A stretch of DNA of 56,035 nt from Anaerolineae bacterium (lineage in GTDB: Bacteria > Chloroflexota > Anaerolineae > B4-G1 > SLSP01). The stretch spans positions 1 through 56,035 of the forward strand of contig DAOTUH010000390.1 in the NCBI GenBank assembly GCA_034437255.1. Reading direction: 5' to 3'. The translations under genes and the position numbers were made by a program. The notes under the pieces were generated by a model, which had not been told where the DNA came from, searched no databases, and saw only the letters and a list, made by a program, of their open reading frames with translations. This document shows, in pieces, positions 26,518-50,553 of the stretch. The first letter of the stretch is position 1; every line of letters starts with the position of its first letter.

Positions 26518-26726
26518 TTCTATCCTCCTCACAAAGTGTACCCTCATTGGGCAAACGAAGCAGTTCCAGGGTGGCTCAGACGCCATAGGCGGATCACAGT
26601 CATGTTTACCACCCACATCAACCCCAACGTCGTTTGCCTTGATCGCGTCTAAGCACGTTCTGGGGTAGCAAGGATGGTTTCAGTAGCCAATTTGTTTCGA
26701 AATCCCGCATTCCAAATGGAAACGGA

Positions 26727-29234: not shown

Positions 29235-30959
29235 TCACTCTCCCGCCCACTGCTTGACCAGCTCATCGTAGGCAATCGTCCTCGGCCGTTCAGCAGTCCG
29301 CGTCGGCTTAGGTGCTCCGGGCGCAGACAACCATGTCTCAGGATCAAGCAAAGGATTGAGGTCTGGAGAGTACGTCGCCATCCGCATGTTGCCCATCGCC
29401 TCGTCCATCTGTCGGGCGATGGCGTCCATGGCCTGTTGCGGCGTGATCTCGCCCTCAATCGCCCGCGCGATATTGGGCCACCAAAACCCAGCCAACTTGG
29501 GATAGTTGGGCACATTGGGCCCCGTGTCTGTCCATTTGCTCTCCTCGCTGGAACGATAGAACTCGATCAACCCACCCCACTGCGCCTTGCGCGCTGTGAG
29601 ATAATCCGAGAAGATCGTGGAGCGCCGCACCGGTGTGCCGCCTTCCAGGAACTTCTCCAGCGACACCGTCTTAGAGACACAGAATTGGGCCCACAGCCAC
29701 GCCATGCCCCGCCGCTGCCCCTTGACGTTCCGGGGAATCGTCCAGCTTCCCGCGTCCTGATACCCAACCTTCATGCCCGCGTCCCAGTAACGTCCATGGG
29801 GCGTCGGGGCCACGCGCCAGAGCGGATTACCGTCCTCGTCAACCACCGGGTTGCCCGGCTCGTGAAAGGACTCGTCGGAAAGCCAGGTGATATACTGGAA
29901 GATGCGCTGTGCGATATCACCGCGCGAGCCCTTCGGACCGGCGTCCACCCAGCGCCAATCCTTGGCCTCGGGCGGCGCGTACTTGTCCAACCACTCGATG
30001 TACTTGGACAGCGCGTAGACGGCAGCCGGACCGTTGGCCGCGCCCCCGCGCTCGACGGACGCGCCCACGGGAATTCTGTCTTCCACGCGGATGCCCCACT
30101 CATCGACGGGCAAGCCGTTGGGCAATCCTCGGTCCCCCACCCCGGCGATGGAGAGCCAGGCGTCGGTGAAGCGCCATCCCAGGGACGGCGATTTCTTGCC
30201 GTAGTCCAGGTGCCCGTAGACCATCTGCCCATTGATCTCGCGACCGGTGAAGAATTCCGCGATGTCCTCGTAGGCAGCCCAGTTGAGGGGCACGCCCAGC
30301 TCGTAGCCGTATTCCTCTTCAAAATCGGCCTTGATCTCCGGGTCGGTGAACCAATCGTAGCGGAACCAGTAGAGATTGGCGAACTGCTGGTCGGGCAGCT
30401 GCAGTTGGTTGCCATCGTAATCCTGTCCAAATTCGAGATTCAGGAAGTCGTCCAGATCCAGATCGGGATTTGTGAACCGCTCCCCCTCGCCCGCCATGTA
30501 CTCGCTCAGATTGACCACGCCCTGACTGCGCAGATGGGTGCCCACCAGATCGGCATCGTTGACGTATATGTCGTACAGGATGCGCCCCGTGCTCTGCTGC
30601 TCCACCATGCGCTCGACGACGGTGCCCTCGCCCACGATCTCGTGTTCCACGTGAATGCCCGTGATCTCCTCGAAGGCCTGCGCCAGCACCTCGCTCTCCC
30701 AGTAGTGCGTGTTGATGTCCTCCGCCACGGACGTGATGCTGCGCCCCCGGAACGGCGCGGCGGTCTCGGCGAACCAACGCAGCTCGGCCACACGCTCGCG
30801 CCGTGAGAGTGCCGACACGTCGAACTCATCGGCCCACTTTTGCACAGCCGCTTCTATATCCTCCGGCAACTCACCGGATTGGGCCCTCGCTGGCGCCGTG
30901 GGCACCAACAGCGAGAGGCATACGAAAAGGATCAGGCCTTTCGTCAGTGACGGCATCAT
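29235..30959 (-). CDS. orphan extracellular solute-binding protein (family 1, sugar/oligosaccharide-type, 574 aa)
   Basis: Signal peptide 'LILFVCLSLLVPTAPARA'. A Trp/Tyr-rich SBP_bac_1-like sequence ('ANLYWFRYDWFTDPEIKADFEEEYGYELGVPLNWAAYEDIAEFF'). The ATG overlaps the P8 stop (ATGA). No permease or ATPase gene is nearby. Confidence 0.65.
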   Translation of the reverse strand: MMPSLTKGLILFVCLSLLVPTAPARAQSGELPEDIEAAVQKWADEFDVSALSRRERVAELRWFAETAAPFRGRSITSVAEDINTHYWESEVLAQAFEEITGIHVEHEIVGEGTVVERMVEQQSTGRILYDIYVNDADLVGTHLRSQGVVNLSEYMAGEGERFTNPDLDLDDFLNLEFGQDYDGNQLQLPDQQFANLYWFRYDWFTDPEIKADFEEEYGYELGVPLNWAAYEDIAEFFTGREINGQMVYGHLDYGKKSPSLGWRFTDAWLSIAGVGDRGLPNGLPVDEWGIRVEDRIPVGASVERGGAANGPAAVYALSKYIEWLDKYAPPEAKDWRWVDAGPKGSRGDIAQRIFQYITWLSDESFHEPGNPVVDEDGNPLWRVAPTPHGRYWDAGMKVGYQDAGSWTIPRNVKGQRRGMAWLWAQFCVSKTVSLEKFLEGGTPVRRSTIFSDYLTARKAQWGGLIEFYRSSEESKWTDTGPNVPNYPKLAGFWWPNIARAIEGEITPQQAMDAIARQMDEAMGNMRMATYSPDLNPLLDPETWLSAPGAPKPTRTAERPRTIAYDELVKQWAGE

Positions 30960-33900
30960 ACGTCGCCCTCCTCCAAGGCTGAGAGCATAATCCGCACTTC
31001 GGCCTCCTCCAGATTCAATGCCGCGCGCATCTCACGGGCAGCAACCTGGAGCACCGCTTCCACGTCCAGCGACTCGCGTATTCGGGAGGTGATCTCGCCG
31101 GTCAACCGCTCACGAGCGGCGCGGCGCTGGGTGTCCTCGTACAGCCGGGCACTTTCCAGGGTCCGGCCCAACTCCTCGCTCAACGCGTCGAGCAGCTTCT
31201 TCTCCTCGATTGTCCACTTCTGGTCCGTACCATCCTTGCGGAAACGGAGTGTGCCGATGGCTTGATCCCTCACTTTAATTGGCACGTCCAGCACCGCCCC
31301 ATCGCCCTCGGTCTGCACACGCTCGTTCTTCTCGGCGGCCTTCATGATTTCAGGCTGCGGCGTCTCCTCAATGGGAACCACCTCCTGGTTCACGTACCGG
31401 TATCCCCACTCGGTCCGACCTCGCAGCAACTTCTGCCACGCCTCGCCGCTCAGCTGACCGTAGGCCCGCCGCTCCGCTGCCAGCGCTTCCTGGGCTTCAG
31501 CGAAGAGGCGTGCGTTGTCCAACGCCACTGCCAGTTGATCGGCCATGGTCTGCAAGACAGCAATGGTGGCTTCGTCGAAGGCGCCGGGACGCGTGCTCTG
31601 CACCGTCAACGCTCCGACGACCTGGCCACGGGAACGCAACGGCAGGGCTGCCTCGGAGCGGGTCTCCGGCAGCTCGGGCGTTGCCAGGCGCACCGCGTCT
31701 TCCTTCGCCACTTGGGCAATACGTGCCTCTCCGTGGGCGACGCTCCAGCCAATCATCGACGTGCCGCCGACTTCCAGGCGGTGACCGCGACCCAACATCG
31801 CCCGGCCGGCCTCACCGGTCCCGGCCTCCAATACAGCCCATTTCCCGGCTTCGCCCACCAGGAACAACCCAACGTAATAGAGGTCGAACCGCTTGCGGAT
31901 CAGCTCCACGGATTGTTGAATTAACTCTTCTACATCCAGGATCGAGGTCGCAGCCCGGCCCACGTCAGCAGCGGCTTTCAAGCCGCGCGTGCGCTCGGCC
32001 ACCATCTCTTCCAACTCCGTGGCCTGGCTGGAAAGCAACCGTTCCCGCTCTTCATAGTAGTCAATCCTGCTTCTCAGCTCTTCCGGCGATACCTGGAGAT
32101 CAGCAAGAATCCTGCCGTACATCCCAGAAAGCTCGCTGGCTTCTTCAGGGGTCATGAGCACGTCCCGCTCCATGGTCCGGTGAGCCGCTGCCGCTCCAAT
32201 GGACCCGGCTAGCACGCGCTCCACCTCTCCGTAGAATTCAGCCAGCTCGGCCACGGAGATCTGTGCCTTTTCCTCGATTCCCACGGCATCCAGGCTAAAC
32301 TCAATGATATTTGCCACTTGGACATCGTTGAAGTACTGGCTGAGCAACCCCTCCAACACGTCGCATTTGCTAGCTATATCAATGTGAGCTTCACCATAGG
32401 CAAGGAGCCGCAAGGTAGGACCGGCGACCAGCGCATCAACGAAGGCGTCGGCTAGTTCCCGCTCCTCTTCGCTCTGCTCAAAGTAGAGGGAGCCCAACAC
32501 GTATAGTCCGACGTTAAACGTCATCGTCCAGAAGAGCGTATGCGTCAACGGTGATAATCCCACCAGGCCAAAGAGCTGCTCCGGTCGGAGAAACTGGATC
32601 CCCAGAGGCCCCTGTTCCAATAGCGACATCGATAACCAGCCGCTCTTGACCAGGGACGGTAACAATAAAGTATAAGTCCAGGTCAGGAAACCGGCGCTCA
32701 GACCCAAGATGGATCCGGTCTTGTTCCCTCGGCGCCAGAAGATGCCGCCCAAAATAGCCGGAGCAAATTGAAGCGCGGCGGCGAAGGAAATCAGCCCCAT
32801 ATTGACCAGGGTATAGGATTCGCCAATCAGCCGTTCGATGAGATAGCCCAAGAACAAAACAAAGGCGATGACGACCCAGCGGACCTGCAGCAGATTACGC
32901 CGCAGAAAGTCCAGCCCTTTCAACCATTCCAGGGACGGCAGCACAAGATGGTTGACGATCATCGTAGCCGTCGTCATCCCACTGACCATCACCATGCCCG
33001 TGGCTGCCGAGAAACCACCGATGAACGCCATCAGGGCCAACCAGGGCCGGTTTTGGCTCAGCGGCAGCTCCAGCACGAAGGTATCGGCTTCCTGTATTGG
33101 CTGGCCCTGTAGCAGTCCACCCACCGCGATGGGGATGACGAAGATGTTGATCAAAAGCAGGTACAGCGGCAGGAGCCACATGGCGGTACGGATGTGATTC
33201 TCATCGGAGTTCTCCACCACTGCCACGTGAAACTGGCGTGGCAAAAACACAATCGCAGACATAGCTAGAACCAGATACGTCATCCAGGTAAGATACGCTG
33301 AAATATCCTCTCCCGCTCTGCCCATAAGTCCCTGGAAAGGACTTTCCGATAGGCGTTGGAAGATGTCCCCAAATCCATCGTACATGATGTATGTCACAAA
33401 GACGCCCACGGCCAAAAAGGCCACCAGCTTCACGATGCCTTGCACCGCCAGAGCTACGATCATGCCTGGCTGCCGTTCTGTGGGATCCAGGCGCCGTGCG
33501 CCAAAGGCAATCGTGAAGGCCGTCATGGTAGCGACCACGGCAAGGCCGATGGGGCCTTCGCCCCAGGCGCCACCCGCGCCCCCGGCAGCGACCATCGTGG
33601 TGAACGTGGAGGTCACCGACTTCAACTGGAGCGCAATATACGGCGTGATCCCCACCAGGGCGATGATCGTCGCGATGGCGGCTAGGGCCGGTGATTTCTC
33701 ATAGCGGGCCGAGATAAAGTCCGCGATGCTGGTGATGCGATGGGCGGCCTTGATTCGCACCAGCTTGCGCAGCACGAGCCACCACAGGGCGATCATCATC
33801 GTCGGTCCCAGGTAAATCGTCAAGAAGAGCGCACCGGAGCTGGCAGCGTTGCCCACACTGCCATAGTAGGTCCAGGAGGTGCAATAGACGGCCAGCGCCA

Positions 33901-34030
33901 GTACGTACACCAGCGGGCTCCCGGCCAATCGCCGCGCGTGGAGTGAGCCGCGCTCCACCCACTGCGCGATCAGAAACAGAAAGCCTATGTACAGCACAAG
34001 CGCTGCAATAATCGTAGCCACACTAAGCAT
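30956..34030 (-). CDS. P8, GAF-stub sensor paralog: SLC5/sodium:solute-symporter-like 12-13 TM domain - helical linker - coiled coil - GAF-A - half-GAF - GAF stub
   Basis: The first 510 aa or so are polytopic with an SSF-like pattern ('ITSIADFISARYEKSPALAAIATIIALVGITPYIALQLKSV', 'FLPRQFHV', 'GGFSAATGMV'). Then 'FDLYYVGLFLVGE..AGTGEAG..LPETRSEAALPL'. Tail 'LESARLYEDTQRRAARERLTGEITSRIRESLDVEAVLQVAAREMRAAL'. Confidence 0.85.
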   Translation of the reverse strand: MLSVATIIAALVLYIGFLFLIAQWVERGSLHARRLAGSPLVYVLALAVYCTSWTYYGSVGNAASSGALFLTIYLGPTMMIALWWLVLRKLVRIKAAHRITSIADFISARYEKSPALAAIATIIALVGITPYIALQLKSVTSTFTTMVAAGGAGGAWGEGPIGLAVVATMTAFTIAFGARRLDPTERQPGMIVALAVQGIVKLVAFLAVGVFVTYIMYDGFGDIFQRLSESPFQGLMGRAGEDISAYLTWMTYLVLAMSAIVFLPRQFHVAVVENSDENHIRTAMWLLPLYLLLINIFVIPIAVGGLLQGQPIQEADTFVLELPLSQNRPWLALMAFIGGFSAATGMVMVSGMTTATMIVNHLVLPSLEWLKGLDFLRRNLLQVRWVVIAFVLFLGYLIERLIGESYTLVNMGLISFAAALQFAPAILGGIFWRRGNKTGSILGLSAGFLTWTYTLLLPSLVKSGWLSMSLLEQGPLGIQFLRPEQLFGLVGLSPLTHTLFWTMTFNVGLYVLGSLYFEQSEEERELADAFVDALVAGPTLRLLAYGEAHIDIASKCDVLEGLLSQYFNDVQVANIIEFSLDAVGIEEKAQISVAELAEFYGEVERVLAGSIGAAAAHRTMERDVLMTPEEASELSGMYGRILADLQVSPEELRSRIDYYEERERLLSSQATELEEMVAERTRGLKAAADVGRAATSILDVEELIQQSVELIRKRFDLYYVGLFLVGEAGKWAVLEAGTGEAGRAMLGRGHRLEVGGTSMIGWSVAHGEARIAQVAKEDAVRLATPELPETRSEAALPLRSRGQVVGALTVQSTRPGAFDEATIAVLQTMADQLAVALDNARLFAEAQEALAAERRAYGQLSGEAWQKLLRGRTEWGYRYVNQEVVPIEETPQPEIMKAAEKNERVQTEGDGAVLDVPIKVRDQAIGTLRFRKDGTDQKWTIEEKKLLDALSEELGRTLESARLYEDTQRRAARERLTGEITSRIRESLDVEAVLQVAAREMRAALNLEEAEVRIMLSALEEGDV

Positions 34031-34296: not shown

Positions 34297-36981
34297 TCAC
34301 TCCTCTGCTTCCATCCGCACTTCTATCTCAGCAATGCCCAATCGCTCTCCCATCTCACGAAGGGCCGTACGGAGTATGACATCCATGTCCAACTTCTCGC
34401 GCATACGAGATGTGATTTCACCTAACATCTGCTCACGAGCGGCGCGGCGCTGGGTGTCCTCGTAGAGACGCGCGCTCTCCAGTGCGCGCCCCAACTCTTC
34501 TGTCAGCGCCTCCAACAGCACTTGCTCTTCGGCGATCCAAGCCTGTCCTGGTTCCGCTTTGCTGAAATTCAGCACGCCAACAACGCGATCACGCACTCGG
34601 AGAGGCACAGCCAACGTCGCCATATCTGACGCATCCTCTACGAAGCCCTGTACACTTTGCTCTCTGTTGACGGCGCGATGCATCTCAGGCGTCCAATTAT
34701 CGTCTTGGGCCGGCACAGTGGTTGTACCCTGATAGTCATAGCCCCAATTGGAACGAGCTTGCAGGATCTTGGCCCATGCTTGACGGCTCAACTCTCCATA
34801 GGCGCGGCGCTCTGCCTCTAGCGAGGCCTGCGCTTCCGTGAACAATCTTGCGTTATCCAATGCCACAGCAATTTGATCTGCCATCGTCTGCAACAACGTG
34901 ATAGTATCACGATCAAAGGCATTGGGCACAGTGCTCTGAATCGTGAGTGCACCGCGCACCTGACCACGAGAACGCAAAGGGAGTGCTCCCTCAGAACGCG
35001 TCTCAGGCAAATGAGGATTATCAAAGCGCACAGCCTCATCGCCGACATCCAGTGCAATTCGCGCCTCTGCATATTTGATGCATTGGCCGATCATGGAGTC
35101 CCCGCCCACCCGTAGTCTATGTTCTTCAGCCAGCATTTTACGTCCTGCTTCACCGGTTCCTGCTCGCAAGACAGCCCAATTCCCCTCGACCAGGAAAAGT
35201 CCTACGTAATAGAGGCCAAAGCGCTCACGAATCAAAACCACCGCTTCACGGATCAAACGATCGCGCTCCAAGATCGAGGCAATGGTGTGGCTTACCTCGC
35301 CCGCAGTCTCTAGATACGCCGATCGTTCTTCTAGCTCACGGGTCCGATCAGCGACACGTTCCTCAAGACTGCCAATGAATTCCCGCAGCTGGCGAGTCAT
35401 GCTGTTAAAAGCACCCGCCAAGGCGCCAATCTCGTCTTCCCGTTCTGTCTCTACAGTGATGAGTTCCTGATCCCCAGATGCGATCTGTTGAGCCGTATCA
35501 GCCAGTCTCGCCAGTGGAACTGTGATCGTGTTGGTAAGAATGATAGAGACAATAACTACCCCTAACACCGCTCCAACCGCAATCCCCGCATCTAGCAGCA
35601 ACAACCGGCTGACGCCGCGAAAGGCCTCGCTGGCATCCTGTTCTGCCACCAATGCGACCCGGAAATCCGGTAGCCAATGATAAACTCCTACCACAGCAAC
35701 GTCCCGGTAATTTTTGTACTGTCCGCTACCCTTCGTTTTCTGTCCAATCGCCATGGTGGTTGCTTCAGAACGAATGTAAGCTATACTCTCTGCCTCGAAC
35801 CTTGACGTCGTAAGCAGGGCGTAGTTAGATCCTACTAGATAAGTCTCACCCGTCTCACCCAGCCCGGCGCGCTCAAGCATAATGCTACTGAGAGCATCCA
35901 TATCCGCCCGGCCTGCCAGAACTGCGACTGGTTCATTCTCTTGGTTGGTCAAGGGACGGGCTGCCAACACCAAGGTCTCCTCAAGTGATGGTGAATAAGA
36001 AGGGGGATGCACATAAGGGCCTTGTAGTCCTTCTTGAAAGAACGTGTCACGGGCGTAAACTTTGCCCTGTTGTGTCGGGTCCGTGGATATAAAGACTTGT
36101 CCGTCGAGATCCATCACAAACATCTCTTCGAAGAGTCCCATCTGTTCGATAGCCCATTGAAGATGTTCCTGGATACTTTCGTACGTCGATTGGCTCGCTG
36201 ACGCTGAACCTATAATCTCTTCAAGTTGATCTGGAAGTTGAGAACTGGTAGCTACAACATCAAGATTCACCACCAGATCATCCAACCAGGCTTGAATCTC
36301 CGCTTGTTTGAGTGTGGCAACGGATTCAAGCTGGTTCTCTACCTGTTGTCGGATCTGATCACGGGCCACTAAGAACGCGCTGCCTCCAATAACCAAGGCC
36401 AATAACAGTACCAAGGGCACGTACGTAATCAGCAAGCGGGAGCGAATGGTACGCAGACGACCGCGAGCAATCACATACTGCCAGACAATAAACAAAGTTA
36501 AGAGGCCTAGGACGGAGAGATAGGCAATAAGCTGCCCTCCGGTATCCGCCAAAACACGACGAGGCAACGGTGCTAACCAGTTAACTAACACGACAAAAAC
36601 TAGATACCCCACCGCGGCACCTAACCCGACAACCCAGCGATGCGGTAGCAACAGAGCCCCTACAAACAGCAACAGCACAGCCACCAATGCAGTTAATATC
36701 GGATCTTGAACCCAGAGCAGTTCGTCGACACCGATTCCCAAAAATGTAGCCAGCAATATCCAATAGGCAGCTCGGTCGAGAGTCTCTTGCCGGAGAGCTT
36801 GCCAGGCCAATATCAAACAGCCAAGAGCCAGCAAAATAAAGCCGGCATCGGCCAAGATATACCAGGCCTGCGTCCTATAATAATCTCTCACATCGGCAGC
36901 AAGCCCGACAATAGCAACCACTAAGCCGATCAGAATGATCCGCCTCATGACCAGAGCGCGCTGCTTGAGCTGTTCAGACAT
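34297..36981 (-). CDS. P9, GAF-stub sensor paralog: about 7 TM - Cache-like periplasmic domain - TM - HAMP - GAF-A - half-GAF - GAF stub
   Basis: Cache-like segment 'FVMDLDGQVFISTDP..YVHPPSYSPSLEETLVLAARPL..ETYLVGSNYALLT..VVGVYHWLPDFRVALVAEQDASEAF'. HAMP 'GDQELITVETEREDEIGALAGAFNSM'. 'FGLYYVGLFLVEG..AGTGEAG..LPETRSEGALPL'. Tail 'LESARLYEDTQRRAAREQMLGEITSRMREKLDMDVILRTALREMGERL'. Confidence 0.85.
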   Translation of the reverse strand: MSEQLKQRALVMRRIILIGLVVAIVGLAADVRDYYRTQAWYILADAGFILLALGCLILAWQALRQETLDRAAYWILLATFLGIGVDELLWVQDPILTALVAVLLLFVGALLLPHRWVVGLGAAVGYLVFVVLVNWLAPLPRRVLADTGGQLIAYLSVLGLLTLFIVWQYVIARGRLRTIRSRLLITYVPLVLLLALVIGGSAFLVARDQIRQQVENQLESVATLKQAEIQAWLDDLVVNLDVVATSSQLPDQLEEIIGSASASQSTYESIQEHLQWAIEQMGLFEEMFVMDLDGQVFISTDPTQQGKVYARDTFFQEGLQGPYVHPPSYSPSLEETLVLAARPLTNQENEPVAVLAGRADMDALSSIMLERAGLGETGETYLVGSNYALLTTSRFEAESIAYIRSEATTMAIGQKTKGSGQYKNYRDVAVVGVYHWLPDFRVALVAEQDASEAFRGVSRLLLLDAGIAVGAVLGVVIVSIILTNTITVPLARLADTAQQIASGDQELITVETEREDEIGALAGAFNSMTRQLREFIGSLEERVADRTRELEERSAYLETAGEVSHTIASILERDRLIREAVVLIRERFGLYYVGLFLVEGNWAVLRAGTGEAGRKMLAEEHRLRVGGDSMIGQCIKYAEARIALDVGDEAVRFDNPHLPETRSEGALPLRSRGQVRGALTIQSTVPNAFDRDTITLLQTMADQIAVALDNARLFTEAQASLEAERRAYGELSRQAWAKILQARSNWGYDYQGTTTVPAQDDNWTPEMHRAVNREQSVQGFVEDASDMATLAVPLRVRDRVVGVLNFSKAEPGQAWIAEEQVLLEALTEELGRALESARLYEDTQRRAAREQMLGEITSRMREKLDMDVILRTALREMGERLGIAEIEVRMEAEE

Positions 36982-37015: not shown

Positions 37016-38005
37016 TTATGGTTGTGAACCTTCCACGAACTCATTCGTATAGACAGCCGTCATATCCACACCCTCTTCGATCAATCCTCTATCAAAAAGA
37101 ATGTCGTGCATTTCTTGCCAAACCTCCTCACGCATCTGACCGATGGCGCCTTCTCCGGTATCGATGAGGGGAATGCTGATTTCGACAGACTCATACTCAA
37201 TCTCGCGTTCCGTCTCAGGCGCAAATGCCATGACCGCGTCTGCGGCTAGTCCGGGGTTTTCGATAGCTTCTTGCCATCCTTTGAGGGTTGCTCGCACAAA
37301 ACGCTGCACCACATCAGGATTTTCCTCGATAAACGTGTCCGTAGTGAAGAGCACGTCCCCATAGAAGGGTACACCGTACTCACCCGGCCAAATGGCCTGA
37401 ACTGAAATACCGTTACGTTCGGCGTAAGGAATGTCGTTGATAGCGTAACCTGGGCAGACCTCAGCGGCCTCCCAGCACTCCAACACATCCCAACTCGGCA
37501 TATCGATCTCGTTGATTTGCTCGCGATCTATATCCAACGCGCCCACAATGGCCTCATAAAGATAGGTTCCTTGCCCTGGGGAAAGCGCTACGGTATGACC
37601 GGGAAAATCATGGGGACTCTGAATACCCGTCTCTTGCGGTGTTATGTACACCAGTGGGACGATCTTATAAATCACGGCGACGGCTTTCACAGGCTCTCCC
37701 TCACCGCGATGGATAATTAACTCTTCCGGCGCACCAAGCGCAAAGTCGTTTTCGCCGTTCAACACATATTCTGTAGTCACCTGCCGATCCATATCAAGGG
37801 GCTCGATGGTGACATCCAGATTCTCTTCGGCATAGTAGCCCTCTTGATCCGCCACGTAGATGCCTGCGAACTGGCCTTGATGGGCCCACTTAAGGCGAAT
37901 GGAAATCTGGTCCGGCTCCGGTGGAGCCGCCGTACATGCTCCTAAGAGAATTATACCTATGACGAGCACCAGCTGAGTCACGATCTGTCTGCGTCTACTT
38001 AACAT
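37016..38005 (-). CDS. orphan NMT1/THI5-like (SsuA/TauA-type) solute-binding lipoprotein
   Basis: Lipobox 'ILLGAC'. 'ISIRLKWAHQGQFAGIYVADQEGYYAEENLDVTIEP' is the typical NMT1/SsuA N-terminal pattern. The ATG at 38005 has AGGAGG 5 nt upstream (the ORF track uses GTG 38029). Confidence 0.7.
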   Translation of the reverse strand: MLSRRRQIVTQLVLVIGIILLGACTAAPPEPDQISIRLKWAHQGQFAGIYVADQEGYYAEENLDVTIEPLDMDRQVTTEYVLNGENDFALGAPEELIIHRGEGEPVKAVAVIYKIVPLVYITPQETGIQSPHDFPGHTVALSPGQGTYLYEAIVGALDIDREQINEIDMPSWDVLECWEAAEVCPGYAINDIPYAERNGISVQAIWPGEYGVPFYGDVLFTTDTFIEENPDVVQRFVRATLKGWQEAIENPGLAADAVMAFAPETEREIEYESVEISIPLIDTGEGAIGQMREEVWQEMHDILFDRGLIEEGVDMTAVYTNEFVEGSQP

Positions 38006-38049
38006 TTCTACCTCCTGTATCTTCTTCACTGTTGTACTACGTCCAAAAT

Positions 38050-39753
38050 CTAACGATCTTCAACGTCACGCATACGTAGCTTGATCTGACCAATCTCCAA
38101 AGCATCTCCGATCTCTTGTAACGCAGTCTGCATAACCGTTTCCATGTCCAACGTCTCTCGCATCCGTGACGCGACCTCGCCGATAAGCTGCTCACGGGCG
38201 GCGCGACGCTGGGTGTCCTCGTAGAGACGGGCACTTTCTAGCGCCTGGCTCAACTGTCCCGTCAACGTCTCCAATAGCTCAATCTCCTCTGCTTTCCATT
38301 CTCCCTCGCCAGCAGGTTTACTACCGTCGATCACACCTACGACCTCGCCTCGCACCTTGATGGGAATCGCCACTCTCTCACCCTCATCATCTAGGGTGAT
38401 CTGCCCCGTATAGAGCGCCTTCCGCATCTCTGGACGCCACAAGTCGCCAGCGGGCACAGTGGTATCCGCGTAACTGAGAAAGCCCAAATCCAACCTTTTC
38501 TCGATCAGCTCTTGCCACGCCTCGCGACTTAACTCACCGTAGGCCCGCCGCTCTGCTTCCAGACTCTCTTGCACTTGCCCGAGGAGGCGCGCATTACTGA
38601 TAGCCATCGCCACCTGGTCCGCCAAGGCTTGCAAAACGTCTACATCCTCCTCACTGAACGCTTCGGGCATCTTGCTCTGCACATCCAAAGCGCCTATGAT
38701 TTCACCACGCGCTCGCAACGGTAACGCCAGCTCCGATCGTGTCTCTGGCAAGTCGGGATTATCGAAATAGACCGCATCTGCGCCGGTGTCCACAGCAATG
38801 CGTGCCACCCCTTGACCGGTGACATAGCCTACAACGCCTTCTTTTCCAACCCGAAGACGATGCCCTCGCGCTAGCATGTGTTGTCCGCCCTCGCTGGACG
38901 CAGCCTGCAACTCCGCCCATTCTCCGGCAGCATCGATCAGGAGGATACCGGTGTGATAGAAGCCGAACCGCTCGCTGATGAGACTCACCACACGCCCAAT
39001 AAGATCTTGAGGATCCAGCACCGAGGTCGCATCGCGGGCCACGCTCGTCGTGGCTTCTAGATAGCGCGAGCGGCGTTCCAGCTCTTGCGTACGGTCCTCA
39101 AGGGTACGACGACTTCTTTCCAAATCGCGGTTTCTCTCGCGTAAGGCCTGGGCGGTATCTCGCGCTCGTGTAAAGCCCTCTGAGATGCTCAGGAGAGCAA
39201 ATCGAACCGCAAGAACAATCAAACTCAGGTTGATAACAAACTGCAACCAGTCTGACCATACAGCACCCCGTACCTCGTAGCTCAAAAATCCTCTATTTTC
39301 CAGGACGAAGAGAATCAACGTGATTAGAACGCTGACAACGGCAAATCCAATGGCGGCTCCCTGACCAAGCAGCAGCCCGGCCAGCAACACGACAAACACA
39401 TAGCCCATGATAGCGGCGCTTCTGATCCCGTTGAAGCTATAAAGGTCGAAGGTAAAAAGCGCCAGCAAGCCCAGGACCAGGAGCAGGCTGGAGAGCTGTA
39501 ACCGCTTCTTATTAAGAAGCCATTTGAGTACTCCCGCCAGAATAAAACCGGCCACCCCAAAAATAAAATTGATCGCCAAAAGGCGAAGGTCAAACACCGT
39601 AAATAAAAAGGGCACGACCACTGAAAACAACAAGACCGTCAACAAGATAGCGTTGAGCAAGCGCGCGACGCGTCTATCCTCATCCCGTTCAAATGCCGGA
39701 GGCGTGAGAAAGTGTCTGATCTTGGCCCACTTCGTCTTCGTTTCCTCTTCCAT
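38050..39753 (-). CDS. P10, GAF-stub sensor paralog: class-I polytopic membrane module - coiled coil - GAF-A - half-GAF - GAF stub
   Basis: 'FLTPPAFERDEDRRVARLLNAILL'. 'FGFYHTGILLIDA..AASSEGG..LPETRSELALPL'. Tail 'LESARLYEDTQRRAAREQLIGEVASRMRETLDMETVMQTALQEIGDAL'. The ATG at 39753 overlaps the P11 TGA by 1 nt (TGATG). Confidence 0.85.
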   Translation of the reverse strand: MEEETKTKWAKIRHFLTPPAFERDEDRRVARLLNAILLTVLLFSVVVPFLFTVFDLRLLAINFIFGVAGFILAGVLKWLLNKKRLQLSSLLLVLGLLALFTFDLYSFNGIRSAAIMGYVFVVLLAGLLLGQGAAIGFAVVSVLITLILFVLENRGFLSYEVRGAVWSDWLQFVINLSLIVLAVRFALLSISEGFTRARDTAQALRERNRDLERSRRTLEDRTQELERRSRYLEATTSVARDATSVLDPQDLIGRVVSLISERFGFYHTGILLIDAAGEWAELQAASSEGGQHMLARGHRLRVGKEGVVGYVTGQGVARIAVDTGADAVYFDNPDLPETRSELALPLRARGEIIGALDVQSKMPEAFSEEDVDVLQALADQVAMAISNARLLGQVQESLEAERRAYGELSREAWQELIEKRLDLGFLSYADTTVPAGDLWRPEMRKALYTGQITLDDEGERVAIPIKVRGEVVGVIDGSKPAGEGEWKAEEIELLETLTGQLSQALESARLYEDTQRRAAREQLIGEVASRMRETLDMETVMQTALQEIGDALEIGQIKLRMRDVEDR

Positions 39754-41486
39754 CACTCGATATCCTTAGCCATATCCTCATCCGGTTTGCCTAAACGAAT
39801 AACCACGTCGTTCAACGCCAATGCCTGCTTGACCTCACTCGCCGCCGCCTTCAACACCCTCTCCAGATCGAGGGACTCACGGAAACGGGCGGCGGCCTCA
39901 CCGATAAGCCGCTCACGGGCGGCGCGGCGCTGCGTATCCTGATAGAGACGGGCGTTCTCTAAAGCCGTGCTTAATTGGTCAGATAGCGTCTCCATCAGCT
40001 CGACTTGTTCCGGTGTCCATTCGCCGTCGTCCTTTGGTTTATGCGCATCAAGCACGCCAATCACTTGCCCTCGGACTTTGAGAGGAACGGCGAGTACACT
40101 GTCTTCCCCATCTGTATCTTCAATCGAACGATTCTCCGCAAGCGCACGTTTCATCCACGCATGCCACACGTCCTCTGAGACCAGGACGTCCTGGGGGTCG
40201 TAGATTGCTCTCAAGCCTGTTTGAGTGCTAAGCAATTCACGCCATGATTCACGGCTGATCTCGCCGTAAGCCCGTCGCATGGCCTCCAGAGAAACTTCGG
40301 ATTCGGCAAGCAACCGAGCGTTCTCAATGGCCACCGCTACCTGATCTGCTAACGTCTGCAGAATCGTTACATCCTCCTGGGTGAAGACCACAGACTGCTT
40401 GCTCTGAACGTCCAGCGCACCAATGACCTCGCCCAGCACTTGAAGTGGCAACGCCATCTCGGAGCGGGTCTCTGGAAGATCAGGGTTATCGAAGTAAGCC
40501 GCATCTTCTCCCACATCCAGGGCAATACGGGGTTCGCCCCGCCCCGTGACGTAACCGACGATGCCCGTCGCTCCCACCTTCAACCGGTGACCACGAGCCA
40601 GCATTTGACGCCCGCCCTCGGACGAGGTCGCTCGCAGTTCCGCATACATGCCTGTGTCGTCGAGGAGAAAGATACCGGTATGATAGAAGCCAAAGCGATC
40701 TGAGATAAGGTTCACCGCCTGCGTCAACAGCTGCTCAATATCTCGAATCTCCGCCGCTTCCCGTGCGACCTCAGCAGCGGCTGCCAGCTGGGCGTTTCGG
40801 GACGCAAGCCCGGCCGTCCGCTCCCGCACCTGCGCCTCGAGTTGAGCCCGCTGCTCTTCCAATTCCTCAGCCAAGCGACGGCTCTGTCCCAAAGCATTGG
40901 CAAGACGCGGAAGCAGATAGTCCAGGGAGATCACCAATAAGCTTCCCAACATGAGCAAGATAATGGTGCCGCTCAACCAAGCAACCCAATCGGTGGTGTT
41001 AGCCTGCTGTGCCACCGAAATTGAGAGGCGACCGGAGGAAAACATCCAGCCGAAGGCGATCATGGTGAGGATGGTCAGTACCAATCCACCAATGCCTGCC
41101 CGCCGTCCAAAGAAGAGCGCGGCAAGCATAGGAAAGGTCAGCAGGAATATCCGACCATCGCCACTCAATCCTGCTTCAATCAAACCCAAAACACCCAAAC
41201 CATAAATCAGAAATAGGAGCATTCCAGCTTGAACAGCGTAAGAGATTCGGCGCCAGAACGTGATGACGAGAATCACTCCGTAACCGCCAACATAGAAGGG
41301 TATCAGCGCTACTTTATCTTCCACGAAAGCATTGTAGGAACTGCTTACAACAGCAAGACCCCCGACGATAACCAAAAACCACAACACACCACGCACCAAC
41401 TCCTGGCGCCAGGTCTGGATGCCCGCCACGGAGGAACTCCCGGCACGGACTTCCAGACTCTCTTTATCGACATTCGATATGCTCAT
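39753..41486 (-). CDS. P11, GAF-stub sensor paralog: class-II polytopic membrane module - coiled coil - GAF-A - half-GAF - GAF stub
   Basis: Class-II motif 'GLSGDGRIFLLTFPMLAALFFGRRAG'. 'FGFYHTGIFLLDD..ATSSEGG..LPETRSEMALPL'. Tail 'LENARLYQDTQRRAARERLIGEAAARFRESLDLERVLKAAASEVKQAL'. Confidence 0.85.
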   Translation of the reverse strand: MSISNVDKESLEVRAGSSSVAGIQTWRQELVRGVLWFLVIVGGLAVVSSSYNAFVEDKVALIPFYVGGYGVILVITFWRRISYAVQAGMLLFLIYGLGVLGLIEAGLSGDGRIFLLTFPMLAALFFGRRAGIGGLVLTILTMIAFGWMFSSGRLSISVAQQANTTDWVAWLSGTIILLMLGSLLVISLDYLLPRLANALGQSRRLAEELEEQRAQLEAQVRERTAGLASRNAQLAAAAEVAREAAEIRDIEQLLTQAVNLISDRFGFYHTGIFLLDDTGMYAELRATSSEGGRQMLARGHRLKVGATGIVGYVTGRGEPRIALDVGEDAAYFDNPDLPETRSEMALPLQVLGEVIGALDVQSKQSVVFTQEDVTILQTLADQVAVAIENARLLAESEVSLEAMRRAYGEISRESWRELLSTQTGLRAIYDPQDVLVSEDVWHAWMKRALAENRSIEDTDGEDSVLAVPLKVRGQVIGVLDAHKPKDDGEWTPEQVELMETLSDQLSTALENARLYQDTQRRAARERLIGEAAARFRESLDLERVLKAAASEVKQALALNDVVIRLGKPDEDMAKDIE

Positions 41487-41507: not shown

Positions 41508-43169
41508 TTATTGTTCTCCTGTACCCAATCGCACATCTAGCGCTGTCAATCCCAATGCCTTGCCGATCTCCTCGGCAGCATTATTGAGCACCGTCTCCAC
41601 ATCCAACGTCTCTCGCATCCGTGACGCGACCTCGCCGATAAGCTGCTCACGGGCGGCGCGACGCTGGGTGTCCTCGTAGAGGCGGGCGCTCTCCAGTGCC
41701 AGGCTCAACTGCTCCACAAGGTTGATCATCAGCGATTTCTCGTCCGCGGTCCAATCGAGCGCTTCATCGGGCTTGTGGGCTACCAGCGTCCCGATGGCGT
41801 GCCCGCGAACCCGGATTGGCAAGGAAAGCGCCGGCAAGTCCCCATGATCGCCTTGAGCTTGCGACGTCGCGTCTTCCACAGGTCGCACGTTACCCTGATC
41901 GTAGACAAAGCCCTGGGCAAGGTGCCGGTGCAGGAGCTCGGCCCACGCCTCGTGGCTGAGTTCGCCGTAGGCCCGGCGTTCCGCTTCCAAAGATTGCTGC
42001 GCCTGCTCAAAGAGACGGGCGTTGCTGATCGCCACGGCGATCTGATCCCCCAGGATCTTCAAGATGGCGATGTCTTCCTCGCCAAAAACTCCAGGTTCTC
42101 GACTCTGGACGTCCAAAACTCCGATAACCTCCCCCCGAGCTCCCAGCGGTAGCAGGATCTCCGAGCGCGTCCCGGCGAGTACAGAATGGTCAGCGTTGAC
42201 CGTCTCAGCGACATCAAGAAGCACTCGGCTTTGTCCCCGTACGACAACAGTACTCACCACCGTATCAGCGTCTACCGGCACGCCATATCCATCTTCGACC
42301 AACTCTCGCCCCATGGCGGACGACGCAGCACGTAGTATGAGGTTTCTGCGCGCTCCATCCAGGAGGAAGATACCGGCATGGTGATAGTCAAAACGCTGGC
42401 TCACCAGGGAGACCACGCGGGTAAGTAGCGTTTCCAAATCGAGCGTCGATATAGCATCGCGGGTCACGCCGGCGACCGTTTCCAGGAAGTGCGTGCGGCG
42501 CTCCAGATCGTGCGCCTGCTCTCGGAACGCATCGCGACTGATCTCCAGCTCCCGGTTCCGTTCCTGGAGCACCCGCTCGGCGTCTTGCAAGCGCTTCACG
42601 GTATTGTTGATGGTTCGCAGGACAAAGCCCCCGATCACCGACATGATAGAGATCACACCGAGGAAAATCATCAGCTCGCCAAAGGGGGCGTTAGAGCCCA
42701 GAAGGTCTGGGAGCATCTCAATTCGCGCAAGGATGTAGAGCACAACTGCCGCCAGCACGCTCAAGCCGCCAAAGACAAAGGCACCCATCCCGCCCAACAA
42801 CAAACCAGCTAGGAAGATCACGATCAAGTATCCACCGGAGATGGGATTGTCTAGGCCACCAAATGCATAGAGCGAGGCAGTAAAGATCAGAAACAACGTC
42901 GAGAGAAATATGATACCTGCCAGATCGGCCTGGCCTCGCCGAAGCAAAACCCACACCGCCCCGGAGATCAAAGTGAAGATGCTGACCAATCCCACGCCCA
43001 TGATGCGGGCACTGGGATCGTCCGCAGTGATAACGAGCGGCACCATGATCACGATGCCCAACACAACCCCTGATACAATAAGAATCGCCAGCAACCGGGC
43101 GTTGCGCGTCTTGATCTCATCGTCCTCAAATGTCGGCGGCGTCAGCAAATTCTTGATTTGGGTTAACAT
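41508..43169 (-). CDS. P12, GAF-stub sensor paralog: class-I polytopic membrane module - coiled coil - degenerate GAF-A - half-GAF - GAF stub
   Basis: 'LLTPPTFEDDEIKTRNARLLAILI'. Its GAF-A has lost family-invariant residues ('FDYHHAGIFLLD', 'DGYGVPVD', 'ADHSVLAGTRSEILLPL'). The tail 'LESARLYEDTQRRAAREQLIGEVASRMRETLDVETVL' is nearly identical to P10. Confidence 0.85.
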   Translation of the reverse strand: MLTQIKNLLTPPTFEDDEIKTRNARLLAILIVSGVVLGIVIMVPLVITADDPSARIMGVGLVSIFTLISGAVWVLLRRGQADLAGIIFLSTLFLIFTASLYAFGGLDNPISGGYLIVIFLAGLLLGGMGAFVFGGLSVLAAVVLYILARIEMLPDLLGSNAPFGELMIFLGVISIMSVIGGFVLRTINNTVKRLQDAERVLQERNRELEISRDAFREQAHDLERRTHFLETVAGVTRDAISTLDLETLLTRVVSLVSQRFDYHHAGIFLLDGARRNLILRAASSAMGRELVEDGYGVPVDADTVVSTVVVRGQSRVLLDVAETVNADHSVLAGTRSEILLPLGARGEVIGVLDVQSREPGVFGEEDIAILKILGDQIAVAISNARLFEQAQQSLEAERRAYGELSHEAWAELLHRHLAQGFVYDQGNVRPVEDATSQAQGDHGDLPALSLPIRVRGHAIGTLVAHKPDEALDWTADEKSLMINLVEQLSLALESARLYEDTQRRAAREQLIGEVASRMRETLDVETVLNNAAEEIGKALGLTALDVRLGTGEQ

Positions 43170-43181: not shown

Positions 43182-45044
43182 CTACTCCGCACCGTCGCCC
43201 GATTCGAGACGGACTATCACGTTACGCAACCCCAACGATTCACCGATTTCGCGCACGGTAGTCTCCAATACCGCGTCAACGACCGGTATCTCACGCATCC
43301 GCGCCGTGATCTCACCAATCAAACGTTCATGGGCCACACGCTGTTGGGCTTCCTCAAACAGACGCGCACTATCCAACGTAGGGCCTATCTGATTTACCAA
43401 AGTTTGTACCAGTGCTATTTCCTCATCCGTCCACAGACCGGTCTCGGGCGGCTTACGGAAGTGGAGAACGCCGACATGCTGCTCGCGCACTTTCACGGGA
43501 ACCGCCAAGATGCCGGATTCCGCCTCTGGATCTATGGATTGCACCGGTTCTCCCGTCTGTAACGCGGTTCGCATCTCGTCGTACCACGTGGACGTCTCAG
43601 AGAGACCTTCCTTGGCACTATAGCGATAGCCGGTGCGGTGCGCCCGGATGATCTCCTGCCACGCCTCCCGGCTGAACTCACCATAAAGTCGCTGCACCTC
43701 TTGCAGACGCTCGCGCGCTTCTTGATAGAGGCGAGCATTGTCCAGCGCCAGCGCGATCTGATCCGCCAAGCTCTGGAAGACTGTGACGTTCTCCTCGGTG
43801 AAAGCATCGGGCTCCCTGCTCTGCACGTCCAGAATGCCGATGGTTTCGCCACGAACGCGAAGTGGAAGCGCGACCTCCGAACGAGTTTCCGGCAGATCCG
43901 GGTTATCGAAGTACGAGACGTCTCCGCCGGTGTCCAACGCCACGTACGGCTCTCCTATCTGCATAACACGCCCCACGATGCCCTCACCGAGACCCAGACG
44001 ATGCCTTTGTTCCAACATCCGCTGTCCGCCTGGGCTCGATGCTGTTTTCAACACTGCGTGTGTCCGTGGTTCATTGATGAGAAACAGGCCTGCATGGTAA
44101 AACCCAAACCGCTCGCTGATCAACTGTACCACGTATTCTTGCAGCCGCTCCGGATCCAAGATAGTCGTTGCCATGCGTCCCACGTCCGCCGAGATCCGCA
44201 TCTGCTCCGCCAGGGACTCCAGCGCGACTGTACGCTCGGAGATGCGTTGCTCCAGGGTACCGTAGAGCGTCTGCAGCTCAATCGCCATCTGGTTAAAAGC
44301 CTCGGCCAGCTGCCTCGGCTCCCCGCCCATCTCCATCTCTATCCGATGATCCAACTCGCCAACGGCGAAACTTTCTGCCCCTTTCAGTAAACGAGTCGAT
44401 GCATATTCAAAGGTTTGAATCGTTGAGTAGGCTATAACCACCACAATCAGAAAAGCCACACCTGCCCCAATCAGAACCGAGCGAAAGACGTACCGGTTCG
44501 CCTGGACTGTGGCCTCCAGCGCCTCGGTCTGCGCCCGATTCGAAGCGGCGACCAGTTCATCCAAGGACGCTGAGATACGCGTGATCTCATTTCCCAGCGC
44601 GATGACCCGGGTACGTCGAATCTCTTCCCATTCCCCATCGACGGCGGCCTCAATAAGGTACTCGGTGAGGTTCTGCAGATTGTAGACGGCACCTACGAGC
44701 GCCGAATCTACGTCGTCATCGAACACACGCCTCAAATCCTCATAGCGCGCGTTCATAGTTGTCAAGCGTGCGCGCACCCGATCGCGGAAGTCCTCTCGAT
44801 CCTCCAACAAGATAGCCTCATCAATGGCCAGAACGAGGTCCAGACGGGTTCTGGAAAGCGCCTCCGCCGCCAATGTGCGCTGCGTCTGCAATCTGAGCGC
44901 TTCGTTGGCGTCCGAGATTCGCTGGAGTTGATACACAATATAACCTGTCAGTATCACGAGGAGTAAAGAAAAGATACTGAAGCCCACGATCAATCGAGCA
45001 CGGAGTGAAAGGCCTCCCCGCCGGGGTATCGCTCGTCGTTCCAT
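43182..45044 (-). CDS. P13, GAF-stub sensor paralog: TM - helical (4HB-like) periplasmic domain - TM - HAMP - GAF-A - half-GAF - GAF stub
   Basis: HAMP 'GELDHRIEMEMGGEPRQLAEAFNQM'. 'FGFYHAGLFLINE..TASSPGG..LPETRSEVALPL'. Tail 'LDSARLFEEAQQRVAHERLIGEITARMREIPVVDAVLETTVREIGESL'. Confidence 0.85.
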   Translation of the reverse strand: MERRAIPRRGGLSLRARLIVGFSIFSLLLVILTGYIVYQLQRISDANEALRLQTQRTLAAEALSRTRLDLVLAIDEAILLEDREDFRDRVRARLTTMNARYEDLRRVFDDDVDSALVGAVYNLQNLTEYLIEAAVDGEWEEIRRTRVIALGNEITRISASLDELVAASNRAQTEALEATVQANRYVFRSVLIGAGVAFLIVVVIAYSTIQTFEYASTRLLKGAESFAVGELDHRIEMEMGGEPRQLAEAFNQMAIELQTLYGTLEQRISERTVALESLAEQMRISADVGRMATTILDPERLQEYVVQLISERFGFYHAGLFLINEPRTHAVLKTASSPGGQRMLEQRHRLGLGEGIVGRVMQIGEPYVALDTGGDVSYFDNPDLPETRSEVALPLRVRGETIGILDVQSREPDAFTEENVTVFQSLADQIALALDNARLYQEARERLQEVQRLYGEFSREAWQEIIRAHRTGYRYSAKEGLSETSTWYDEMRTALQTGEPVQSIDPEAESGILAVPVKVREQHVGVLHFRKPPETGLWTDEEIALVQTLVNQIGPTLDSARLFEEAQQRVAHERLIGEITARMREIPVVDAVLETTVREIGESLGLRNVIVRLESGDGAE

Positions 45045-45048
45045 ACCA

Positions 45049-46770
45049 TCAGCCTCCGATCACCGGAGATTCTTCATCCACCAGCTGCAAAACAACCTCA
45101 TCCAAGGCCAGGTGCTGACCGAGCTCTCGAACCGTCGCTGCAAGCACGTCGTCAAGATTGAGTGAGGCTCGCATTTGGGTCGTCACTTCACTGACCAGCT
45201 GCTCCTGTGCCGCACGGCGTCGTGTCTCCTGATAAAGCCGGGCATTCTCCAACGCCAACCCAATCTGCTCACCCAGCTGCATCAATAATTCACGCTCATC
45301 CGTGCTCCAAGAGCCACTCTCTGCCGCTTTGCGAGCGTTGATTACTCCCACAATTTGTCCTCGCACCCGGACAGGTACAGCTACGACCGTGCCTTTTTCT
45401 TCAGCCATTGCCGTCTCGCCTGTGCGCATAACTCGGAGCGAGTACTTGTCAATGATGTCCTCAGCTACGTTCAGACCCAACTGATCGCGCGTGAACCCCA
45501 AGCCCTTCTCTCTTTTAAGCAGGTCTTGCCAGCCCGCGCGGCTTACCTCACCATACGCCCGACGTTCCGCCTCCAGGCGCCTCTCTATCTCTCGCACCAA
45601 CTGCACGTTGCTGATAACCAGGGCGATCTGATCAACCAGCGTCTGCAACACCAACACGTCCTCTTCCCCAAACGCATCGATGTGTTTCGATTGTACATCC
45701 AGTACACCGATAACGCGCTCCCGAGTCTGCAGCGGCAAAGCAACCTCAGAACGGGTCTCCGGCAGTTCAGGATTGTCGAAGTGGACAGCATCCTCACCGA
45801 CATCGCGGGCGATGCGCGCCTCGCCATGTCTCGCAACGTAGCCAACTACCCCCGTCTCCCCCACGCGCAGGCGGTGCCCCTGTGCCAACATACGTTGGCC
45901 TCCCTCAGATGAAGCTGCGCGCAATTCTGCGTACTCCTCCGTGGCATCGAGGAAAAAGACCCCGGCGTGATAATAACCAAAGCGTCTGGAGATCAAGTTG
46001 ACGACCCGACGCAGCAACCGATCCAAATCACGAATGGCAGAGGTTTCCCGCGCCACCTGGGCAGCCGTCGCCAACTGAACGGACCGCCGTTCCAGGGCCT
46101 CTGTGCGCTCTTCGACCAGCTTGTGCAGTTGGTTCTGGCGCAAATTCAGGTGTTGGGTCAGCTCCTGGCTTTTACCCAGCGCGTCGGACAGTTTCAAGAG
46201 AAGATAGCTCTGTGCCAGATTAGCCAGGACACCCAAGATCACCACCAGGGTGCCTCCGCTCAACCAGGCCAGTGGATCTATCACATTGGCCTGGACCGAA
46301 GGCGGGACGACCAGACGCCCGGTCGCGTAGGCCCATCCAAAGACACCCAACACCTCCGCCACCACCACCAGCACGCCAATCCCGGCCACTCGGCCCCAGA
46401 ATACACTGGTGAAAAAGGCAAACGCCAGCATAAAGACATGGCCCTCACCACTAAGTCCAAAATAGTAATAGTTGAGACAGCCAAGCCCGAAGAGAATAAC
46501 CAAAAAAGTACCTGTCTGCAAAGCGTATGTGCTCTTCTTCCAGAAGGCGACGACTAAGAAGAAGAGATACGCGCCCACATAGAAAGGAATAACCGCCAGG
46601 TTCTGGTTTACGTAGTCATAGACGCCGCTGACAACGACCGCTATCCCTCCCAGAACAACCAAAAGGTTCAAAATCACGTGAATCAGTTGCCGCCGGAAGG
46701 TTTCGACGTTTTCAACCGAGGAGTCCCGATCTTGCACTTCTTCTACGCTGACTCGTTCATCTTCAGCCAT
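45049..46770 (-). CDS. P14, GAF-stub sensor paralog: class-II polytopic membrane module - coiled coil - GAF-A - half-GAF - GAF stub
   Basis: 'GLSGEGHVFMLAFAFFTSVFWGRVAG'. 'FGYYHAGVFFLDA..AASSEGG..LPETRSEVALPL'. Tail 'LENARLYQETRRRAAQEQLVSEVTTQMRASLNLDDVLAATVRELGQHL'. The ATG at 46770 has GGAG 6 nt upstream (the ORF track uses TTG 46776). Confidence 0.85.
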   Translation of the reverse strand: MAEDERVSVEEVQDRDSSVENVETFRRQLIHVILNLLVVLGGIAVVVSGVYDYVNQNLAVIPFYVGAYLFFLVVAFWKKSTYALQTGTFLVILFGLGCLNYYYFGLSGEGHVFMLAFAFFTSVFWGRVAGIGVLVVVAEVLGVFGWAYATGRLVVPPSVQANVIDPLAWLSGGTLVVILGVLANLAQSYLLLKLSDALGKSQELTQHLNLRQNQLHKLVEERTEALERRSVQLATAAQVARETSAIRDLDRLLRRVVNLISRRFGYYHAGVFFLDATEEYAELRAASSEGGQRMLAQGHRLRVGETGVVGYVARHGEARIARDVGEDAVHFDNPELPETRSEVALPLQTRERVIGVLDVQSKHIDAFGEEDVLVLQTLVDQIALVISNVQLVREIERRLEAERRAYGEVSRAGWQDLLKREKGLGFTRDQLGLNVAEDIIDKYSLRVMRTGETAMAEEKGTVVAVPVRVRGQIVGVINARKAAESGSWSTDERELLMQLGEQIGLALENARLYQETRRRAAQEQLVSEVTTQMRASLNLDDVLAATVRELGQHLALDEVVLQLVDEESPVIGG

Positions 46771-50552: not shown

Positions 50553-50553
50553 C

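Follow-up and report, generated by a model that had tools for sequence, protein, structure and literature searches.

Fifteen receptor-like proteins encoded together in an Anaerolineae genome all end shortly after what looks like the opening of a further GAF domain, which raises the question of why a domain should be begun so consistently and never completed. The genes lie on contig DAOTUH010000390.1 (assembly GCA_034437255.1, Anaerolineae bacterium), a stretch of 56,035 nt that was analysed as a whole and is called the window here. The 15 paralogs are all encoded on one strand between positions 12724 and 52446 and share the same C-terminal block behind their input modules. In the paralog P10 (568 aa; gene at 38050-39756, minus strand, as are all P10 features below), this block consists of a first GAF domain (GAF1, residues 229-395, 38572-39072), a mid domain (residues 396-516, 38209-38571), a tail (residues 517-563) and five more residues; positions 38050-38580 hold the codons for residues 393-568 and the stop codon. 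We consider it slightly better than an even bet (a probability of about 0.55) that the tail is the remnant of a third GAF domain that has been kept as a helix-turn-helix-strand cap at the C-terminus, where it dimerises or positions the helical spine of the protein.

The tail was recovered in all 15 paralogs in a MAFFT alignment of their last 220 residues, with the consensus R-R-A-A-R-E-R-L-x-G-E-V-T-x-R-M-R-E-T-L-D-x-E-T-V-L-x-T-A-x-x-E-x-x-x-A-L-G-L-x-x-x-x-V-R-L. A profile of 50 tail columns retrieved 8w26 (E = 4.6e-11), 6oap (6e-11), 2lb5 (1e-7) and 6bhn (3e-6) from the PDB, with further matches to 8k9o, 3oov, 6oza, 6uv8 and 6xhg. Every one of these matches covered either the opening ~45 residues of a GAF domain of the phytochrome or cyanobacteriochrome type or the start of a PHY domain (8w26 was matched a second time at the start of its PHY domain), and the alignments stop at the D-R-V-x-V/I strand, which is β1. 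The tail also aligned in register to the first 45 positions of the paralogs' own GAF1 (hhalign P = 2.4e-4). By itself it had no match in Pfam. An earlier note, made from the sequence alone, had described a GAF-start-like segment at the end of every paralog, and the profile matches bear this out; it had placed the protein ends 5-25 residues further on, and here the distance is indeed short but ranges from 4 to 44 residues. The hidden Markov model (HMM) of the tail likewise matched GAF starts within HK1, a multi-GAF histidine kinase encoded next to the array (independent E values, iE, of 2.5e-4 and 1.3e-3), including both of the HK1 strings with which that note had compared the tails.

Helix 1 of the tail (residues 519-536, 38149-38202) is homologous to the α1 or 'RIT-motif' helix of PAS-less phytochrome GAF domains and aligned to residues 10-29 of 8w26 and 138-157 of 6oap. 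Helix 2 (537-553, 38098-38148) is homologous to GAF α2 and the return segment (554-563, 38068-38097) to strand β1, and the whole tail aligned to residues 10-53 of the PAS-less phytochrome SyB-Cph1 (8w26). The RIT motif is a 15-residue helix with an invariant Arg-Ile-Thr; in the tail, which is in register with 8w26 residues 10-29, the I/V-T is kept, and the Arg is Glu in tails of type A (G-E-V/I-T) and shifted in those of type B (R-E-I-T; the types are described below). The likeness to the GAF starts of PAS-less phytochromes and cyanobacteriochromes (SyB-Cph1, 8w26 and 2lb5; 6oap; NpR6012g4, 6bhn) extends over 44 residues at E ~1e-11 and includes the I-T of the RIT motif, a conserved Arg before the S/T-L-D turn and a conserved Glu in helix 2. 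Unlike those domains, the tail lacks the remaining ~110 residues (β2-β6, the ligand pocket and the closing helix) as well as any bilin-binding context, and it stands at the C-terminus of a protein rather than opening a domain. A complete GAF domain takes ~130-170 residues, of which the tail covers only the first ~45; homology identifies it as the first two helices and the first strand of a phytochrome-type GAF domain.

Such tails are not peculiar to the window. A protein search returned 199 relatives at E ≤ 0.001, the named ones being called 'GAF domain-containing protein' or something similarly generic, and scans found 368 relatives in species-representative genomes and 443 in metagenomes; every named genome with relatives was a metagenome-assembled genome (MAG) from Anaerolineae, Thermoflexales or other Chloroflexota. 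We sampled 151 related Anaerolineae/Thermoflexales loci (1.89 Mb), in which the tail HMM found 701 copies, 686 of them within 60 residues of a stop codon. The residues after the tail number between 2 and 114 in relatives (median 14), and in eight of the 701 cases 60-114 residues of low-complexity sequence follow. The greatest density among the 72 genome loci counted was 10 tails per 20-kb locus; the window has 15. A kinase core was found in none of 714 tail-bearing open reading frames (ORFs). The family is large (~700 members in the sampled loci), unannotated and confined to Chloroflexota, and its proteins combine classic receptor inputs with no recognisable output; a literature search for the receptor family found no description of it.

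Column entropy in the tail helices (1.76-1.82 bits) is as low as in GAF1 (1.84 bits). It is lowest at the junction that leads into the tail (E-D-T-Q-R-R-A-A-R-E, residues 513-522, 38191-38220), the best conserved stretch of the family, where T-Q-R-R-A-A-R-E averages 1.1 bits and Q, R, R and A hardly vary. Variability within the module peaks in the front half of the mid domain (residues 422-460), at 2.94 bits versus 1.6-1.9 elsewhere. The fixed cut point together with the conservation of the tail indicates that the truncation is under selection. That so uniform a truncation is functional rather than decay, as previously argued, is strongly supported by the terminal position of 686 of 701 tails and by an entropy equal to that of GAF1; tail conservation in related arrays, the absence of which would have counted against the earlier reading, is seen in the 151 loci.

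The tails fall into subtypes A (457 copies, ...GEVTARMRETLDVETVLQTAVREIRQALGLAEVEVRLG), B (109 copies, ...REITDKMRRAVDVEGILQTAVDELARALGTSRAFVRLG) and C (38 copies), which are mixed in most arrays with at least four tail copies; this mixing could reflect different pairing or partner specificities. In some relatives short tandem peptide repeats follow the tail (loci L032 and L125, whose ORFs have the tail at residues 702-745, and loci L056 and L076), for example D-Q-R-E-A-R-R-P-L-R four to eight times or E-A-N-G-R-V-L-S four times, as variable low-complexity extensions. A 1313-aa ORF of locus L114, with its tail at residues 892-935 (68 bits), is the sole case of a high-scoring tail followed by a long frame (378 aa); a genuine fusion, loss of a stop codon or faulty assembly could explain it.

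The domain that precedes the tail had been read as the back half of a GAF domain only. At the sequence level this is what is seen: the mid domain scores 29.8 bits against the Pfam family PF01590 (cut-off 22.4) but covers only positions 91-133 of 133, and in hhalign it matches positions 112-167 of GAF1 (E = 6e-16). At the level of the fold the reading fails. We used AlphaFold2 (AF2) models of P10 residues 229-568 (predicted local distance difference test, pLDDT, 86) and of the C-terminal 190 residues of another paralog (pLDDT 85). GAF1, which is covered by the full Pfam GAF and GAF_2 profiles (PF01590 / PF13185), was modelled at pLDDT >90 as a complete domain of six strands, with Foldseek matches to GAF domains at a template modelling (TM) score of 0.8. 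In both models the mid domain has the order helix, β1, β2, helix, β3, β4, β5, helix. All 50 top Foldseek matches of the mid-plus-tail model in the PDB were GAF domains, and the two-domain model aligned over 319-370 columns to the tandem GAF domains of PDE2A, PDE5A and CyaB2 and to the GAF-PHY pair of SyB-Cph1.

Coevolution agrees with these models. Mean-field direct coupling analysis (DCA) was performed on an alignment from the sampled loci (681 sequences, the maximum used; effective number, Neff, 580). It recovered a β1-β2 hairpin in the mid domain (G425-A436, L427-V434 and S428-T433, with residue numbers that sum to 861), a pairing of β1 and the final strand (S428-G478 at z 8-10; L424-G478) and contacts of the first helix with the last (Y406-L506 and G407-L506). 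The N-terminal helix, the β1 strand beside the last strand and the C-terminal helix that mark a GAF fold are thus all present, in a minimal variant with five strands instead of six and without pocket helices. By AF2, Foldseek and coevolution, then, the mid domain is a complete, stripped-down GAF domain and not half of one; its front half is short and variable and is for this reason missed by Pfam.

The couplings also bear on whether the tail packs on the mid domain. Counting strong pairs (z ≥ 3.5 in the type A subset), we found 30 of 780 possible pairs within the tail (38 per 1000), 20 of 7381 within the mid domain (2.7 per 1000) and 3 of 5534 between tail and mid domain (0.5 per 1000). The coevolution analysis proposed in the earlier note reveals dense coupling inside the tail and next to none towards the mid domain, and on this evidence the tail is not packed on the latter. 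The tail also occurs behind GAF domains of nearly full size, as indicated by the domain before the tail of paralog G15, which matches GAF_2 over positions 3-136 of 136 (E = 4.5e-5; 24.1 bits, with a Pfam cut-off of 28.6), and by that of paralog G1, which matches positions 36-136.

A source for the tail is suggested by HK1. In BLASTP, P10 residues 225-546 align to HK1 residues 664-986 with 34% identity (E = 2e-49), starting in GAF1, covering the mid domain with its front half and reaching into the tail (HK1 residues 664-1004 are encoded at 8280-9302, minus strand), and the tail-equivalent of the kinase runs on into a complete GAF domain at residues 967-1127. Together with G15 and G1, this collinearity indicates that the tail is the start of a following GAF domain that has been deleted, rather than a displaced start of the mid domain. 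HK1 thus contains the same unit of GAF and mini-GAF as the paralogs; it likely represents the ancestral type, or is possibly a partner. The block in general resembles tandem-GAF modules (HK1; PDE2A and PDE5 GAF-A/B; CyaB2), which likewise join GAF1, a linking helix and a second GAF on a long helical spine. It differs from them in that its second GAF has only ~95-120 residues and five strands and in that the paralogs stop 45 residues into the next domain, without a catalytic output.

Within the tail, the couplings between helix 2 and the terminal segment are the strongest of the whole module (Q547-G556, z 10.3; I549-K559, z 7.8; I549-I558, z 6.2; L546-M562, z 5.4; M542-L560, z 4.7). They persist in the type A subset and when 212 sequences are added, and they indicate that the terminal segment folds back on helix 2. 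Weaker pairs connect the two helices (S530-V541, z 4.5; M532-V541; E534-D551, z 4.1; R531-E548, z 3.8) and helix 1 with the strand (L536-I558, z 3.8). A straight helix rules such pairs out; a turn at T-L-D would accommodate them. The L-D-x-x-T-V at the start of helix 2 resembles what we take to be a helix N-cap with a hydrophobic staple. Pairs within the return segment (G556-R563, G556-R561 and Q557-R563, z 4.4-6.6) are not contacts within one extended strand and might instead reflect strand pairing between chains or a tight turn.

About 15 tail positions are strongly hydrophobic in 64-100% of sequences. They include residues 538, 541, 542, 546, 549 and 553 of helix 2 and the alternating residues 558, 560 and 562 of the return segment. 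This number makes a lone exposed helix implausible and suggests burial both within the tail and against another chain. None of them falls at residues 513-523, a polar and basic helix segment of 11 residues that is without hydrophobic residues and holds the junction motif; in a dimer its exposed arginines (R-R-x-x-R) would cluster, and they could bind an anionic ligand or a partner.

These observations can be combined as follows. The ancestor would have had a tandem-GAF architecture resembling that of the neighbouring multi-GAF kinase, and a cut directly behind strand β1 of its last GAF domain would have left the α1 (RIT-type) helix, α2 and β1. At the end of the long helical spine this stub would fold on its own into a helix, a turn, a second helix and a return strand, with its conserved hydrophobic residues buried in part inside the stub and in part against another copy or a partner. 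As a C-terminal cap it would hold or position the dimeric spine of a receptor-like sensor. We infer that the stub dimerises or docks and that the signal would leave the protein by this means. The results as a whole narrow the search for the missing output to the basic junction and the stub.

The comparison with SyB-Cph1, the closest homologue with a solved structure, gives this reading a precedent. There, the α1 'RIT' helix, α2 and the C-terminal α6 form a three-helix bundle in each protomer, and the sister bundles make up the dimer interface; a ΔRIT variant (residues 2-29 removed) retains chromophore binding but shifts from dimer to mostly monomer (PMC11264168). Because the tail aligns to SyB-Cph1 residues 10-53, two of the three helices of the interface bundle have been kept while the sheet and the pocket were lost. 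The conserved C-terminus is a fixed, selected GAF remnant that matches the dimer-interface region of SyB-Cph1, and of the three explanations offered in the earlier note (a permuted domain, a stub completed in trans and a helical dimerisation cap) the last is the best supported, since the retained segment is the part that forms this interface.

Several results weigh against a dimerising cap. The third helix of the SyB-Cph1 bundle, α6, is absent in these proteins. Both AF2 models continue the last helix of the mid domain straight through the two tail helices to residue 553, drawing a single helix of 65 residues instead of a hairpin and leaving only the last ~10 residues non-helical. The pLDDT over this helix is 57-74 in one model and 71-89 in the other, and it dips at E-T-L-D between the tail helices (57 and 71, respectively); in the second model the 10-residue block that spans the end of the helix and the start of the return segment reaches 89, and the last block 62. 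The pairs between the tail helices are just z 3.7-4.5 once the subtypes are separated. The subset results are relied on here because the existence of subtypes A, B and C raises some of the tail-tail couplings when all sequences are used, and the dense covariation within the tail could stem partly from the subtypes or from a shared partner rather than from direct contacts. In addition, a comparison of the couplings of the tail with those at the matching positions of GAF1 gave a correlation of r ~0 at every register shift, which may mean that the tail packs in a way that is not simply GAF-like; a few coupled pairs of tail and GAF1 do coincide (e.g. 542-560 with 253-271), and the correlation test is uninformative.

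Many of the same data could be read differently, with the stub and the basic junction as a shared docking tip, i.e. the output surface by which many kinase-less receptors bind one partner. The partner could be a multi-GAF histidine kinase, bound through mimicry of half of a GAF dimer interface, and the arrangement would resemble that of chemoreceptors, whose varied sensors have a single conserved tip in common. The inputs of the paralogs are very diverse and their C-terminus is uniform and devoid of catalytic output, the junction is the best conserved stretch, subtypes A, B and C occur together within arrays, and the array is flanked by two histidine kinases and a response regulator, with HK1 carrying the same GAF and mini-GAF module at 34% identity. 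Chemoreceptor arrays built on methyl-accepting chemotaxis proteins (MCPs) would be the functional analogue, as they too comprise many paralogs with diverse sensors, periplasmic or in the membrane, and HAMP domains and one conserved, non-enzymatic helical element at the C-terminus; unlike them, the present proteins have no relation in sequence or fold to the MCP signalling domain and no known partner of the CheA/CheW kind. The link to a kinase is not a strong one, however, since a kinase core lies within ~20 kb in only 16 of 59 long loci, and self-association explains the same data. We therefore regard a docking tip as a tentative alternative, and we doubt it more than we favour it. A bolder and still less probable version makes the stub a trans-acting GAF fragment, with the kinase-less receptors docking their half-interface (RIT helix, α2 and β1) onto a GAF domain of a shared multi-GAF histidine kinase or completing that domain. 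If this were true, 15 sensors would feed one kinase, and receptor-kinase coupling like that of MCP and CheA would have been built from GAF parts.

Alternatively, the stub might be one part of a split domain and donate α1, α2 and β1 to a GAF domain that lacks them in another protein or paralog. The cut lies exactly at the β1/β2 turn, core-facing hydrophobic residues have been retained, and the pairs of G556 and Q557 with R561 and R563 are not intra-strand contacts, all of which such a donor would explain. An acceptor is what is wanting: neither the window nor the 1.9 Mb of sampled arrays yielded an ORF that begins with a GAF domain short of at least its first 40 positions, and seven candidates turned out to be frameshifted assemblies or mid domains (the search for GAF domains without α1-β1 covered the window and the 151 loci, and not whole genomes or divergent GAF classes). 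The GAF domains of the paralogs and of both kinases are all complete, and the mid domain has its own β1. Completion in trans, the second of the earlier explanations, is thus not supported, and we consider it improbable. In locus L021, a contig of a nanopore-derived MAG, several family genes are in fragments that start in the middle of a GAF domain and look like frameshift errors.

It is very unlikely that the stub is an inert leftover of evolution or a mere helical extension without a role. AF2 does show it simply as a continuation of the last helix, and what follows it is variable, low-complexity sequence, but it is conserved like GAF1 in ~700 members from several orders of Chloroflexota, its truncation point is fixed and it holds the strongest internal coevolution of the module. 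Circular permutation, with the GAF back half and the front stub forming one small permuted GAF, is scarcely credible: it accounts for the Pfam match to positions 91-133 before the tail, and swapping the segment order lets GAF_2 align over positions 2-136, but the swap gains only 2 bits, AF2, Foldseek and DCA give the mid domain a first helix, β1 and β2 of its own, its β1 pairs with the last strand such that the slot in the sheet for a permuted stub is already filled, tail-mid couplings are at 0.5 per 1000 pairs, the tail stands behind the GAF_2 matches of G15 and G1 as well, and its HK1 equivalent belongs to the next GAF. The locus is in this respect a cautionary case, in which domain boundaries drawn from sequence hinted at permutation and structure prediction and coevolution disagree. 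As the mid domain does not lack its front half, a C-terminal piece supplying a missing N-terminus, as in circularly permuted domains, was rejected.

The remaining features of the window concern the array itself. In P10 the five residues behind the stub (564-568) are acidic and variable, and together with the stop codon they occupy 38050-38067. In the remaining 14 paralogs the tail HMM (hmmsearch, iE 1e-12 to 4e-23) places the tail within 12859-52446 on the minus strand, at 12859-12990, 16947-17078, 18695-18826, 21010-21138, 22770-22898, 26763-26894, 30989-31120, 34312-34443, 39792-39923, 41526-41657, 43206-43334, 45082-45213, 46836-46967 and 50620-50730. We also considered whether the tails mark split genes or readthrough, and rejected this, as the ORFs downstream of tails encode the paralog that comes next or else a solute-binding protein.

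The N-terminal inputs of the 15 paralogs differ and include, according to Pfam, MASE11, 4HB_MCP with HAMP, dCache_1 with HAMP, ABC_sub_bind and a LacI-type binding domain (Peripla_BP) with PAS. The paralog at 30956-34030 has a multi-pass membrane N-terminus of ~600 aa without a Pfam match. No paralog gave a Pfam match to HisKA/DHp or HATPase_c, and none therefore qualifies as a sensor histidine kinase. Four solute-binding protein genes are interspersed among the paralogs; interleaved genes of this kind lie at 15790-16893, 25342-26616 and 37016-38029, and a 574-aa ORF at 29235-30959 has a signal-like N-terminus and no Pfam match. Upstream the array is flanked by a response regulator (55218-55778) and a GAF histidine kinase (52470-54785), and downstream by HK1 (5889-11291, minus strand), a hybrid histidine kinase of 1800 aa with seven GAF matches, HisKA, HATPase_c and two receiver domains in Pfam.

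Successive genes overlap by 4 nt at 16890-16893, 18662-18665, 30956-30959 and 39753-39756, which suggests translational coupling in one long operon. The listed ORFs at 46803-50630 and 50554-52446 share 77 nt, and the true start of the former therefore probably lies further downstream. The start of the window (16-1431) encodes a FUR-family regulator and a ZnuA-type metal-binding protein that are unrelated to the array.

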